Assembly (NCBI RefSeq): GCF_054482595.1
Contig: NZ_CM137008.1
Strand: one strand, 5' to 3'
Length of the DNA: 64,000 nt
The position numbers and the translations under genes were made by a program. Below the pieces are notes generated by a model. It was not told the origin of the DNA. It saw only the letters and a program-made list of their open reading frames with translations, and did not search any database. Below are positions 10,231 through 15,807 of the stretch, one piece after another (position 1 is the stretch's first letter; every line of letters starts with the position of its first letter).

Positions 10231-10429
10231 CTGTTTTTCACCTCTCCGTTGCGTTTATCCCGGATATAGATGAGTTGTTCTTTTAAGAGCTTCCGGCTCT
10301 GCATGATGATGTCCTTATATTTGGCATTCCTGAACAAGGAAGAGTAACAACGGGCGGGACGCGAGGGGAATAAATGATTTCTGAAAAGTCCGGTAGCGGA
10401 ACATTACCGCCACCGGGAGAATTTGCACG

Positions 10430-11257
10430 TTAGCCGCCGAACTGGTCAGGATCGGGACCGAGACGCTTGCCCTGATCGAGTTTTGCAATTTCGCCGAGTT
10501 CGTCTTTGTCGAGACGGAAATCCCAGACATCAAAGTTTTCGGCAATACGTGAAGGTGTGACCGATTTCGGGATCACCACCAGGCCGCTATCCAGATGCCA
10601 GCGGATAACAATCTGCGCCGGGGTTTTGCCGTATTTATCTGCCAGATCGCGAATGACTTTCTGATCGAAAACGCCTTTCCCTCCTTGCGCTAATGGGCTC
10701 CAGGATTCGGTCTGGATTTTGTGTGTCGCGTTCCAGGCGTGTAGCTGGCGTTGTTGCATCAGCGGATGAAGTTCGATCTGGTTTATCACAGGCGTCACGC
10801 CAGTTTCATCAATCAGGCGTTGCAGGTGATGGATCTGGAAGTTGCACACGCCGATGCTTTTGATTAATCCCTCTTTTTGCAATTCGATCATGCCTTTCCA
10901 TGCTTCGACATAATGGTCGATAGCGGGAACGGGCCAGTGCATTAAGTAGAGGTCGATATAATCAAGCTGGAGTTTTTTCAGGCTGTCGAGCAGGGCTTCG
11001 CGGGGGCGCTTGTGGTCGTCGTTCCACAGCTTAGTGGTGATGAACAGTTCTTCTCTGTTGACTGAGGCATTTTTCAGGGCTTTGCCGACACCTTCTTCGT
11101 TCTTATAGGCTGTGGCGGTATCAATCGAGCGATAACCCACTTCTAACGCTTTTTGAATGGCGGTGATTACTTCCTCATTACTTGCTTGCCAGACGCCCAG
11201 TCCCAACTGGGGCATGACATTGCCATCCTGTAGCTTAATAACGGTTGGATTAGCCAT
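10430..11257 (-). CDS. dkgA: 2,5-diketo-D-gluconate reductase A / methylglyoxal reductase (aldo-keto reductase)
   Basis: 275 aa; MANPTVIKLQDGNVMPQLGLGVWQ N-terminus typical of AKR family. Confidence 0.93.
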   Translation of the reverse strand: MANPTVIKLQDGNVMPQLGLGVWQASNEEVITAIQKALEVGYRSIDTATAYKNEEGVGKALKNASVNREELFITTKLWNDDHKRPREALLDSLKKLQLDYIDLYLMHWPVPAIDHYVEAWKGMIELQKEGLIKSIGVCNFQIHHLQRLIDETGVTPVINQIELHPLMQQRQLHAWNATHKIQTESWSPLAQGGKGVFDQKVIRDLADKYGKTPAQIVIRWHLDSGLVVIPKSVTPSRIAENFDVWDFRLDKDELGEIAKLDQGKRLGPDPDQFGG

Positions 11258-11361
11258 ACGTTCCTCCTTTATATGAACTCACCGGAGCAGGCTCCGGTGA
11301 GGTGTTGTGAACTTAAGTCTGGACGAAATGCCCGAAAACGAAAGTTTGAGGCGTAAAAAGC

Positions 11362-12525
11362 TTAGCGGGCGGCTTCGTATATACGGCGGCTGACATCCAG
11401 CGTAATGTCATGATTTTCGCCCAGTTGGGTCATGCCGTGCTCTTCCAGTTTTTTCAGCAAAGCCGGGATGGAGCTGCCGTCCAGACCGTAGTCGGAGAGG
11501 TGGGTAGGCACGCCTAATTGCTCAAAGAAATTGCGGGTTGCGGCAATCGCGGCGTCAATACGCTCATCGTCGGAACCTTCAGTGATGTTCCAGACGCGTT
11601 CAGCATATTGCAGCAGCTTAGCGCGCTTGGTATCGCGTTTTTCATTCCACAGTGCAGGCAGGACGATAGCCAGTGTTTGCGCGTGATCCAGACCGTGCAT
11701 CGCAGTCAGTTCGTGGCCCAGCATATGCGTTGCCCAGTCCTGCGGTACGCCAGCGCCAATCAAACCGTTCAGCGCCTGAGTCGCCGCCCACATGACGTTG
11801 GCGCGCACATCGTAGTTTTCTGGCTCTTTCAGGGCTTTCGGACCATCTTCGATCAGCGTCAGCAAAATGCCTTCTGCGAAACGGTCCTGAATTTTGGCAT
11901 CAACCGGTTTGGTAACATACTGTTCCACGGTGTGTACAAAGGCGTCCACTACACCGTTAGCCACCTGACGCGGCGGTAGGGTGTAGGTATAAACCGGATC
12001 GAGCACGGCAAATACGGGCTGAACATGGGCAGAATGGAACGCCTGCTTATCGCCTGTGGTTTTACGGGAGATCACCGCACCGGCGTTGGATTCTGAACCG
12101 GTTGCTGGCAGCGTCAGCACACAGCCCATCGGGATGGCGCTTTTAATCTCTTTACCGCCCGTTTGCAGAATGTGCCACGGATCGATATTTTCCGGATAGT
12201 TAGCCGCTGCGGCGATAAATTTGGTGCCGTCCAGTACAGAACCGCCGCCAACCGCCAGCAGGAAAGTCACTTTCTGTTCGCGAACCAGTTTCACGGCGTT
12301 CATCAGCGTTTCATAAGCCGGGTTTGGCTCAATACCGCCAAATTCCAGCACGTCCATGCCTTTCAGGGCATCCAGAACTTGATCGAGAACGCCGGTTTTT
12401 TTCACGCTGCCGCCACCGTAGGTAATCAATACGCGAGCATCGTGAGGAATTTGTTCGCGTAAACCAGCGATTGCGCCTTTACCAAACAGAATGCGGGTTG
12501 GGGTGTGCAGATTAAAGTTGTTCAT
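11362..12525 (-). CDS. yqhD: NADPH-dependent aldehyde reductase (iron-containing alcohol dehydrogenase family); ORF track start at 12549 is an 8-codon over-extension
   Basis: Translation from [22 protein letters not shown]; Fe-ADH fold motifs; divergent from yqhC. Confidence 0.93.
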
Positions 12526-12661
12526 TACTTGCTCCCTTTGCTGGGCCAATATGAGGGCAGAGAACGATCTGCCTGATGTTTTTCATTGTGATCGCCAGCG
12601 CCCTGGCTCTCAATGCTCATTTCTGCCTATGTCTTGCCTATTTCTCCAGAGTGCTGGAGAA

Positions 12662-13618
12662 ATGCTACAAAATTGCGCACAATCAAATTGCCGCATTATT
12701 CCTAAGAAATTACGCGATATGAAACGTGAAGAGATTTGCCGCTTGCTGGCGGATAAAGTTAATAAACTGAAAAATAAAGAAAATAGTTTGTCAGAACTGT
12801 TGCCCGATGTGCGTTTGTTGTATGGCGAGACGCCTTTCGCACGTACACCGGTGATGTACGAGCCTGGCATCATAATTCTCTTTTCCGGGCATAAAATCGG
12901 TTATATCAATGAACGCGTGTTTCGTTATGATGCCAATGAATACCTGCTGCTGACGGTGCCGTTGCCGTTTGAGTGCGAAACCTATGCCACGTCAGAGGTG
13001 CCGCTGGCAGGGTTGCGTCTCAATGTCGATATTTTGCAGTTACAGGAACTGTTGATGGACATTGGCGAAGATGAGCATTTCCAGCCGTCGATGGCAGCCA
13101 GCGGGATTAACTCCGCCACGTTATCAGAAGAGATTTTATGCGCGGCGGAGCGGTTACTCGACGTGATGGAGCGACCACTGGATGCGCGTATTCTCGGCAA
13201 ACAGATCATCCGCGAAATTCTGTACTACGTGCTGACCGGACCTTGCGGCGGCGCGTTACTGGCGCTGGTCAGTCGCCAGACTCACTTCAGTCTGATTAGC
13301 CGCGTGCTGAAACGGATTGAGAATAAATACACCGAAAACCTGAGCGTCGAGCAACTGGCGGCAGAAGCCAACATGAGCGTATCGGCGTTCCACCATAATT
13401 TTAAGTCTGTCACCAGCACCTCGCCGTTGCAGTATTTGAAGAATTACCGTCTGCATAAGGCGCGGATGATGATCATCCATGACGGCATGAAGGCCAGCGC
13501 AGCAGCGATGCGCGTCGGCTATGAAAGCGCATCGCAATTTAGCCGTGAGTTTAAACGTTACTTCGGTGTGACGCCGGGGGAAGATGCGGCAAGAATGCGG
13601 GCGATGCAGGGGAATTAA
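12662..13618 (+). CDS. yqhC: AraC-family transcriptional activator of yqhD-dkgA; ORF track start at 12491 is probably over-extended, with the likely start at internal Met MLQNCAQ
   Basis: C-terminal AraC-type HTH region; start chosen so that the gene does not overlap the divergent yqhD start. Confidence 0.88.
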
Positions 13619-13657
13619 ATACGTTCCCGGTACAGCAGCCGGGAACGGGGAAAATCG

Positions 13658-14456: not shown

Positions 14457-15644
14457 TTATACAATTCGCGCAAAACCGGCGTCCAGATCGGCAATCAGAT
14501 CGTCGACATCTTCCAGACCAATATGCAGGCGAATCAAGGTCCCGCTAAAATCGATCTCGCCTTGGGGGCGAATGGCGGCGATATGTTCTGGTTGATTCGC
14601 CAGGATCAACGATTCATACCCGCCCCACGAGTAGGCCATGCTGAATAAACTGAAGTTATCCAGATAGTTCGCCAGCTCTTCATTATTGAGTTTTTTCTTA
14701 AGCACAAAGGAAAATAGCCCGCTGCTGCCTGTAAAGTCTCGTTTCCAGAATTCGTGGCCTTTACTGCCAGGCAGAGCAGGGTGGTTAACTCGCGCAACTT
14801 GCGGATGTTCTGCCAGCCATTCAGCCACTTTCAGACTGCTTTCATGATGTTGACGCAAACGCACACCTAATGTGCGCAGGCCACGGCTGGTTATATAGGC
14901 GGTATCGGCATCGACCATCTGGCCCATCAGATAGGCGTTTTCCCGTAGCTGCTCCCAGCAACGGGCATTGCACACGGCAGTGCCAATCATCGCATCTGAA
15001 TGCCCAACCAGATATTTGGTGGCGGCTTGAATAGAAACATCGATGCCAAAATCCAGCGCCTTAAACAGCACACCGGCTGCCCAGGTGTTGTCGATCATAA
15101 TGATGGCATCCGGCACCACACTGCGTACGGCGGCAACAATCGCCGGAACGTCGTGGACTTCCATGGTGATGGAGCCTGGCGATTCCAGAAACACGATTTT
15201 AGTGTTTGGCTGCAGATGCTTAACGATATCGGCACCAATCAGCGGATCAAACCACGATGTCGTTACGCCCAGTTTGCTGAGGATTTTGCTACAGAAATCC
15301 TGACTCGGTTCATAGGCGGTGTTGGTCATCAACACATGAACGCCCTGTTCGACAAAAGCAAGAATGGAATTAGCAACCGCTGCCGCCCCGCAGGGAAATA
15401 GCGCGCAGCCTGCGCCACCTTCCAGTTCACACATCGCTTGTTGTAAGGAGAAATGGGTTAACGTTCCGCGCCGTCCATAGAACAACTCGCCATTGGCGCG
15501 ATTGCGCGTCGCGTGCTTTTTGGCTTCCACACTGTCAAAGACCAGCGAAGAAGCGCGCTGAATCACGCTATTTACCGCGCCGAGAGTGTATTTTTTGCTG
15601 CGTCCTGCATTCACCAGTTGAGTATCAAGCTTTTTGTCCGCCAT
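14457..15644 (-). CDS. metC: Cystathionine beta-lyase (PLP-dependent); ORF track start at 15779 is over-extended, with the likely start at [10 protein letters not shown]
   Basis: Cys/Met-metabolism PLP enzyme fold; PLP-lysine region [10 protein letters not shown]. Confidence 0.93.
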
Positions 15645-15662
15645 CTCGGGATTCCTGTTTTT

Positions 15663-15686
15663 ATACGTCTGGATGTCTAAACTAGC
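15663..15686 (-). promoter_or_regulatory. Candidate tandem MetJ boxes in the metC upstream region
   Basis: atacgtct ggatgtct aaactagc resemble tandem 8-bp met boxes (consensus AGACGTCT) just upstream of the metC start. Confidence 0.4.
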
Positions 15687-15807
15687 ATGAATATTCGCGG
15701 GCGCATCCTGAAGAATTGGCATAAAGCAGAAAATTTTCGCAAATGGCGTGCTGGTGACTTTTTTACTGCGTAAACGCAAGGAAAAGAAAGCAAAGGTACG
15801 GCAGTAT

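Follow-up and report, generated by a model that had tools for sequence, protein, structure and literature searches.

The window analysed here, a 64,000-nucleotide stretch of Escherichia coli DNA (NCBI RefSeq assembly GCF_054482595.1, contig NZ_CM137008.1), carries the well-known aldehyde-detoxification module formed by dkgA (10430-11257, - strand), yqhD (11362-12525, - strand) and the divergently oriented regulatory gene yqhC, which ends at 13618 (+ strand). Comparison across the Enterobacteriaceae indicates that the principal translation start of yqhC in E. coli is most probably the ATG at position 12719, 57 bases downstream of the ATG at 12662 from which the gene is read in the curated K-12 record. 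With the start at 12719, the divergent control region would measure 193 bp (12526-12718). This correction is already implicit in the RefSeq records of the Prokaryotic Genome Annotation Pipeline (PGAP), and it conflicts with the curated K-12 annotation, the UniProt-type annotation and published constructs.

The locus is 100% identical to that of several E. coli chromosomes and is found in 5423 of 5426 complete E. coli genomes, being missing from three. YqhD is identical to its K-12 counterpart, while YqhC (G45E, in the numbering of the 318-amino acid (aa) form) and DkgA (A49T) are each one residue off. As the earlier note on this DNA had recorded, this is known biology, since the system is the K-12 yqhC/yqhD-dkgA module itself. 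Both the identity of the module and its divergent layout are borne out by profile models, by the near-identity with K-12 and by synteny across the 80 Enterobacteriaceae species from which the locus was taken for comparison, yqhC being divergent from yqhD-dkgA in all loci with the flank present. The alignment of the control region comprises 77 distinct sequences, and K-12 coordinates were obtained as 3167880 minus the window position, a conversion checked against the K-12 record. In the search of the E. coli genomes, one record has the locus on a plasmid, and at least one genome carries two copies.

The translation start of yqhC

Three starts are found for yqhC in sequence records and annotations:

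12491, + strand: start of the 375-aa form, as in the original K-12 'ORF_f375', EDL933 and Shigella
12662, + strand: start of the 318-aa form, as in the current K-12 record NC_000913.3, UniProt-type entries and the earlier note
12719-13618, + strand: yqhC coding sequence from the conserved start, 299 aa, as in RefSeq PGAP ('MULTISPECIES ... [Enterobacteriaceae]')

The codon aligned to 12719 is ATG in 80/80 species, and that aligned to 12662 is ATG in just nine of the 77 distinct sequences. An in-frame stop codon occurs 0-16 codons 5' of the conserved ATG in 59 of the 80 loci, and no equivalent of the 12662 start is therefore possible in these. Conservation at the three codon positions is 0.90/0.90/0.62 in the 15 codons after 12719 and flat (0.66/0.66/0.57) in the 19 codons before it, with no codon periodicity ahead of the conserved ATG. 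Within Escherichia, this 19-codon extension displays seven distinct substitutions, of which one is synonymous and six are non-synonymous, against 269 synonymous and 46 non-synonymous substitutions in the yqhC coding sequence. The changes in the extension include loss of the start codon (ATG to ATA) and a nonsense change (TGC to TGA) in a lineage labelled E. coli E69. The E69-type variant has no match among the complete E. coli genomes, and this locus (L003) therefore belongs to a divergent Escherichia lineage and not to typical E. coli. A further natural stop codon is found in E. coli NCTC9064 (L083), where a T to G change at the equivalent of 12711 converts extension codon 17 from TTA to TGA and leaves the 299-aa open reading frame (ORF) intact, but as a singleton among 5412 genomes it has the value of an anecdote only.

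The domain content of YqhC bears out its identification in the earlier note as an AraC-type regulator. The AraC_N domain (PF06719) is matched at 138 bits over profile positions 2-149 of 150, corresponding to residues 28-178 of the 299-aa form, and the C-terminal domain with two helix-turn-helix (HTH) motifs matches HTH_18 (PF12833, 81 bits, cut-off 33.6) and HTH_AraC (PF00165, 66.7 bits, cut-off 26.6). On the DNA, AraC_N occupies approximately 12800-13252 and the two HTH motifs approximately 13355-13582. No solved structure was found for YqhC, the matches of its HTH domain in the PDB being weak.

The ATG at 12662 is preceded by a GGAG motif at a gap of 2 nt, too short a spacing for a Shine-Dalgarno (SD) sequence, and both GGAG and ATG belong to the 3' side of a perfect 10-bp stem whose predicted stability is -13 to -15 kcal/mol. 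This ATG also overlaps an invariant DNA element, the palindrome described below. The RNA around 12719 is unstructured (-3.4 kcal/mol, z = +0.77). Other genera carry a consensus SD, GGAG, at 12706-12709, 9 nt 5' of the conserved ATG, where E. coli has GAAA.

Several observations weigh against a start at 12719. The curated K-12 record and the UniProt-type entries begin the protein at 12662, and approximately 98% of E. coli genomes have the ATG at this position with an open frame. E. coli has a weak SD ahead of 12719 (UAAG...; anti-SD duplex of -1.3 kcal/mol). In published work, a green fluorescent protein (GFP) fusion joined precisely at 12662 behind the native upstream sequence gave expression that changed with yqhC mutations, and recombinant YqhC of 318 aa is functional. 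No direct experimental evidence on the N-terminus or initiation site of YqhC, or on the transcription start of its gene, was found in a literature search, and a broad search of the literature on the yqhC start codon returned nothing relevant. As to the weak SD, the motif is degenerate in both Escherichia and Citrobacter. Citrobacter lacks a good SD and also has no other start further upstream to fall back on, so that a weak SD is normal in this clade.

Translation of E. coli YqhC mainly from 12662, as a protein of 318 aa with a control region of 136 bp, would account for the curated start, the open frame, the GGAG just 5' of the ATG, the activity of the GFP fusion and of the 318-aa recombinant protein, and the promoter activity 5' of 12662 suggested by Reg-Seq (see below). 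It is nevertheless very unlikely, given the rarity of the ATG and the in-frame stops across the family, the missing periodicity, the pattern of substitutions in Escherichia with its start loss and nonsense codons, the short and structured SD context, the overlap with an invariant DNA element and the preference of PGAP for 12719. The choice of 12662 as the internal start in the earlier note agrees with the curated K-12 start and departs from the conserved one. Likewise, the 136-bp control region (12526-12661) given there is arithmetically right and holds where ATG 12662 is taken as the start, while the 193-bp region is the more likely.

Use of both starts in Escherichia, yielding the 299-aa form and a lineage-specific form 19 aa longer, is likewise unlikely. 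In its favour, an active upstream promoter in K-12 (extended -10 at 12624-12632) would place both AUGs on the mRNA, Escherichia keeps the frame open and the GFP fusion at 12662 is expressed. The same handicaps of structure and spacing apply at 12662, however, the extension bears no sign of selection at the protein level, and an open frame of 19 codons arises by chance approximately 40% of the time.

The longest ORFs at the locus are 11362-12549 for yqhD (- strand, TTG, 395 aa) and 12491-13618 for yqhC (+ strand, ATG, 375 aa), with in-frame ATGs inside them at 12525 for yqhD and at 12662 and 12719 for yqhC. The two ORFs overlap head to head by 59 bp (12491-12549), so that the ORF track runs both genes into each other, as the earlier note had stated in discarding both long forms for internal starts. 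That decision stands. Both long ORFs exist, and the 375-aa form is still deposited for EDL933 and Shigella and was the first K-12 annotation. There is, however, no SD at either upstream start (duplex energies of +0.4 and +0.6 kcal/mol), neither extension is conserved, and the family models begin at internal ATGs. The yqhC extension would moreover cross the yqhD promoter and the YqhC-binding block, and the Keio deletion of yqhC, planned on the old 375-aa ORF, took out part of yqhD. The conservation of the internal starts and the alignment of the family models effectively refute the long ORFs as the genes, and there is next to no chance that they are real.

A 48-codon hydrophobic upstream ORF (12576-12722, + strand), which ends in ATGA overlapping the ATG at 12719, was considered and rejected as a chance occurrence. 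No more than 38 of the 80 loci have a comparable upstream ORF (ATG, at least 15 codons, stop overlapping the yqhC ATG), and any yqhC with Asn or Lys as its second codon necessarily yields the TGA, which makes chance the most likely explanation.

The module is a workhorse of metabolic engineering, with yqhD employed in 1,3-propanediol, isobutanol and furfural-tolerance work, and YqhC and the yqhD promoter (PyqhD) serve as aldehyde biosensors. Errors in the yqhC start have already had a practical cost in the case of the Keio deletion. The sensor and expression constructs in the literature are built on the 318-aa ORF, with 12662-12718 taken as coding. Should translation in fact begin at 12719, these 57 bp would instead be promoter or leader DNA overlapping the YqhC-binding palindrome, and the reassignment would matter for the design of promoter parts, knock-outs and fusions; otherwise the finding is an ordinary one.

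The divergent control region

The following features are located between the two divergent genes:

12585-12613, - strand: yqhD sigma-70 promoter, with -35 TTGAGA (12613-12608), a 17-bp spacer and -10 CACAAT (12590-12585)
12555-12574, - strand: yqhD leader stem-loop GGCAGA...UCUGCC near the 5' end of the leader, from the terminator scan
12614-12645, + strand: three direct repeats of approximately 11 bp, TGCyyATkTCT, starting at 12614, 12624 and 12635, from the repeat search and invariant columns
12640-12663, no strand: perfect 24-bp palindrome ATTTCTCCAG-AGTG-CTGGAGAAAT, from the inverted-repeat search
12655-12690, + strand: candidate yqhC promoter, with -35 TGGAGA (12655-12660), a 17-bp spacer, -10 CACAAT (12678-12683) and +1 at G12690

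The -35 and -10 hexamers of the yqhD promoter are invariant or nearly so in the 77 sequences, and the promoter was also flagged by the promoter scan. The same hexamers, with transcription starting at a C, are given in PMC6115493, which attributes them to Lee et al. 2010; in the window, the +1 would be the C at 12578, within a conserved CAUC. The leader stem-loop shows partial conservation, and alifold gives no consensus structure for it. When read on the + strand, 12555-12574 forms a terminator-like hairpin followed by TGTTTTT.

The three direct repeats adjoin the yqhD -35 hexamer and are candidate contact sites for YqhC. The 24-bp palindrome is reported to lie within the YqhC-bound region of the yqhD promoter (PMC6115493), and the A and T of the K-12 yqhC ATG (12662-12664) constitute its last two bases. 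Little or no variation is seen in its right arm, CTGGAGAAA, while the inner positions of the left arm vary. As this variation is uncompensated, the palindrome behaves as a DNA site and not as an RNA hairpin, and a conserved RNA hairpin was rejected on this ground. A T to C polymorphism at 12643 in the left arm (ATTTCT to ATTCCT) occurs in AMA1167 and NCTC9064, and some 800 of the 5412 E. coli genomes depart from the window sequence within 12640-12649, probably at 12643, as judged from the difference of variant counts. Genomic systematic evolution of ligands by exponential enrichment (gSELEX) identified the yqhC-yqhD spacer as the sole genomic site of YqhC, and the electrophoretic mobility shift assays in the literature used this control region with YqhC.

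Binding and activation by YqhC, and its inducers glyoxal, furfural, glycolaldehyde and glutaraldehyde, are known from the literature. YqhC, an AraC/XylS-family activator with an AraC_N sensor domain and two HTH motifs, would bind the block of approximately 50 bp at 12614-12663 beside the yqhD -35 hexamer and, upon exposure to aldehydes, turn on the weak sigma-70 promoter TTGAGA-17-CACAAT. The resulting yqhD-dkgA transcript would supply two NADPH-dependent reductases converting the aldehydes to alcohols, with a possible post-transcriptional role for the element in the spacer between these genes. YqhC itself would be translated from 12719 as a 299-aa protein, and not from 12662 or 12491.

For yqhC, a conserved promoter is predicted from the sequence, TGGAGA-17-CACAAT with +1 near 12690. 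It would overlap the right arm of the palindrome, an arrangement through which YqhC could control its own expression. The A at position 2 and the T at position 6 of its -10 hexamer are invariant (77/77), 12690 is a purine in 76/77 and the distance from the palindrome arm to the ATG at 12719 is the same in 75/77. The -10 hexamer with the four bases downstream of it mirrors the yqhD -10 as an inverted repeat. With 8/12 hexamer matches, this candidate falls under the threshold of the promoter scan. If it is the promoter used, the ATG at 12662 lies upstream of the transcript.

Reg-Seq data speak for another geometry and hence against this account. Footprints lowering expression were reported at 12618-12638 and, in LB, at 12627-12631, the mutagenised region being only 12503-12663 and the Reg-Seq position '0' (K-12 3155262) corresponding to 12618. 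These footprints fit an extended -10 in K-12, TGcCAATGT (12624-12632), with +1 near 12640. The use of such an upstream promoter would place the AUG at 12662 on the mRNA, with the palindrome as a 5' hairpin at the start of the transcript. The hexamer of this extended -10 is not conserved, 12628, which is its position -11, being G in 47 of the 77 sequences and T in the window strain. Published data suggest positive autoregulation of yqhC, which either promoter geometry would allow.

The A to T exchange at 12628 is the single difference between the window and K-12 in the 136 bp from 12526 to 12661, K-12 and most E. coli having A. For the 44-nt stretch 12596-12639, the allele of the window was found exactly in 17 complete genomes and that of K-12 in 4170.

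The yqhD and dkgA genes and the spacer between them

The yqhD-dkgA part of the locus and the end of the transcription unit contain the following features:

11362-12525, - strand: yqhD coding sequence, 387 aa, NADPH-dependent Zn-containing group III aldehyde reductase
10430-11257, - strand: dkgA coding sequence, 275 aa, NADPH-dependent aldo-keto reductase / methylglyoxal reductase
11278-11301, - strand: intercistronic RNA hairpin CUCACCGGAG-CCUG-CUCCGGUGAG, approximately 10 nt upstream of the dkgA SD
11312-11344, - strand: near-invariant 33-nt core CTTTCGTTTTCGGGCATTTCGTCCAGACTTAAG
11296-11359, - strand: Rfam RF02753 (ES173, a small RNA (sRNA) candidate), 99 bits against a gathering score of 90, full model 1-64
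10384-10416, - strand: dkgA intrinsic terminator, stem CCGGTGGCGG / CCGCTACCGG followed by ACTTTT

YqhD matches the NCBIfam equivalog PRK15138 at 843.8 bits (cut-off 645), profile positions 1-387 corresponding to residues 9-395 of the long ORF, so that position 1 of the model is aligned to the Met encoded at 12525. This ATG is kept in 76/76 orthologous loci, with a conserved AGGGA SD before it, and in the window the SD GGGAG (12536-12532) gives an anti-SD duplex of -7.6 kcal/mol at 12525, which is absent at 12549. Just five of the 76 loci have a start codon at -24, where the TTG at 12549 stands, and in-frame stops are located a few codons upstream in many species. The protein matches PDB 1OJ7 and 4QGS at 871 bits. 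The four metal ligands of YqhD, D194, H198, H267 and H281 in the numbering of 1OJ7, are all present. In four loci (L009, L047, L075 and L080), the tblastn matches of yqhD, and in some of dkgA also, are short at the N-terminus, reflecting either pseudogenes or split alignments.

DkgA matches the NCBIfam equivalog PRK11565 at 574.7 bits (cut-off 425), aligning over 1-274 of 275, and PDB 1MZR at 625 bits. The motifs DTA, AYKNE, TTKLW and LMHWP of the catalytic Asp/Tyr/Lys/His tetrad are present. The gene begins at 11257 behind a strong SD, GGAGG (11267-11263, anti-SD duplex of -11.6 kcal/mol). The earlier note had proposed alignment with the curated K-12 starts as a check, and the coordinates of dkgA are the same in K-12 and in PGAP, the K-12 start of yqhC being 12662. 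The starts it chose for yqhD and dkgA are correct, and the assignment is a solid one. A 'primary' 3' end of dkgA from term-seq (K-12 3157494, PMC7815308 supplement) corresponds to position 10386, behind the hairpin of the intrinsic terminator (10390-10416).

The two genes lie on the same strand, separated by a spacer of 104 bp (11258-11361) that the earlier note did not mention. The 33-nt core is recognisable in 74 of the 80 loci, with a mean majority fraction of 0.90 against 0.68 at the synonymous third positions of yqhD and dkgA; the median number of places matching it in an E. coli genome is one. The hairpin at 11278-11301 has 10-11 bp and a predicted free energy of -18.8 kcal/mol (z = -4.9). 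Compensatory changes are seen in nine of its 11 pairs, with 94% of cells paired, and its covariation score was reached by none of 500 shuffles (51 sequences). The ES173 model only half covers this hairpin, which sits just downstream. The stem-loop of the model itself has no covariation support, with 81.7% of positions paired against 81.2% in shuffled alignments and 118 of 500 shuffles as high (50 distinct sequences).

No U-tract follows the spacer hairpin, either in E. coli, where the sequence is UUCAUAUAAAGG, or in other genera, and the terminator scan was silent, so that the hairpin does not qualify as a canonical terminator. The only term-seq 3' end here lies behind dkgA, with none in the spacer (PMC7815308). 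The pattern fits co-transcription of yqhD and dkgA, which is itself stated in the literature, together with a conserved intercistronic RNA element, possibly serving stability or processing. A dedicated post-transcriptional element conserved across the Enterobacteriaceae, formed by the core and the U-tract-less hairpin in place of an inert spacer, is a tentative proposal that may well prove wrong. Such an element could act as a processing or stability switch uncoupling DkgA from YqhD output or, alternatively, could be the body of a regulatory RNA derived from the 3' untranslated region (ES173). It is the only part of the locus with some potential for novelty.

The strong purifying selection on the core and the ES173 match above the gathering score could also indicate that dkgA is not simply co-transcribed, the core and hairpin constituting an independent promoter or operator or a stand-alone sRNA gene (ES173). 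This is rather unlikely. On inspection of the consensus, neither strand of the core offered an acceptable hexamer pair for sigma-70, sigma-E or sigma-54, and a promoter of these classes was rejected. Synonymous sites show no added conservation towards the 3' end of yqhD, the single gSELEX site of YqhC lies in the other spacer, no term-seq 3' end occurs here and the ES173 fold lacks covariation; ES173 may be a mere operon read-through signal clipped at gene borders. A YqhC site in the core was rejected as well, since ATTTCGTCCAGA resembles the palindrome arm ATTTCTCCAGA only with a 1-bp gap, and gSELEX lists one YqhC site, elsewhere.

Enterobacterial repetitive intergenic consensus (ERIC) elements are typical of transcribed spacers, and their occurrence here speaks for the operon. 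Several Citrobacter and one Kluyvera (L007, L008, L013, L014, L019, L021, L023 and L071) have ERIC-like insertions of approximately 120 nt that lengthen the yqhD-dkgA spacer to 221-230 nt; those of L019 and L021 interrupt the conserved core. In Klebsiella, Raoultella and some Enterobacter (L018, L022, L024-L030, L032, L035, L037, L040 and L051), an extra G+C-rich hairpin occurs right after the yqhD stop codon in spacers of 131-145 nt, followed by the same core and second hairpin.

Related systems and neighbouring features

The K-12 yqhC-yqhD-dkgA system (b3010-b3012; Lee et al. 2010, Turner et al. 2011) shares the locus, the gene order, the yqhD promoter hexamers and the 24-bp palindrome with the window. 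It differs in that yqhC is annotated from the equivalent of 12662 (318 aa), and the window strain has the rare A12628T allele. A regulator divergent from its target operon is also found in araC-araBAD, rhaSR-rhaBAD and melR-melAB. Further features shared with AraC-type modules are the helically spaced repeated sites adjoining a weak -35 hexamer and the two HTH motifs. Unlike AraC, YqhC has an N-terminal domain of the AraC_N type (PF06719) and not an arabinose-binding cupin, and unlike these modules it has a single target according to gSELEX, while its effector may act indirectly.

The HTH domain of YqhC is homologous to those of SoxS, MarA and Rob, with weak NCBIfam and PDB matches, but unlike these regulators YqhC carries a large sensor domain. 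A 'SoxS-like' sequence in the yqhD promoter has been mentioned in the literature. Hand inspection of the control region did not reveal a complete marbox: between GCAC at 12677-12680 and the CAAA behind it there are 4 nt in place of the 8 nt of the consensus, and this GCAC is better explained as part of the -10 hexamer of the candidate yqhC promoter. The spacer between yqhD and dkgA holds a full-length match to Rfam RF02753 (ES173), yet the stem-loop of this family is without covariation here.

A sigma-54 site mapped by chromatin immunoprecipitation sequencing, IA25 (GTGGCATAGGTTTCGCA, 12974-12990, - strand), is located inside yqhC in antisense orientation, facing yqhD (PMC4591121). Most other genera have lost its GG and GC dinucleotides, and the site is thus not conserved outside Escherichia. 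Two features lie beyond the 3' end of yqhC:

13622-13647, no strand: hairpin CGTTCCCGG-N8-CCGGGAACG between the convergent yqhC and yghB, from the terminator scan
14457-15779, - strand: metC ORF (TTG, 440 aa)

The intergenic hairpin has a U-rich tail only on the yghB (-) side. The metC ORF exceeds the annotated metC (395 aa) by 45 codons, an upstream lengthening of the same kind as observed for the yqhC and yqhD ORFs.

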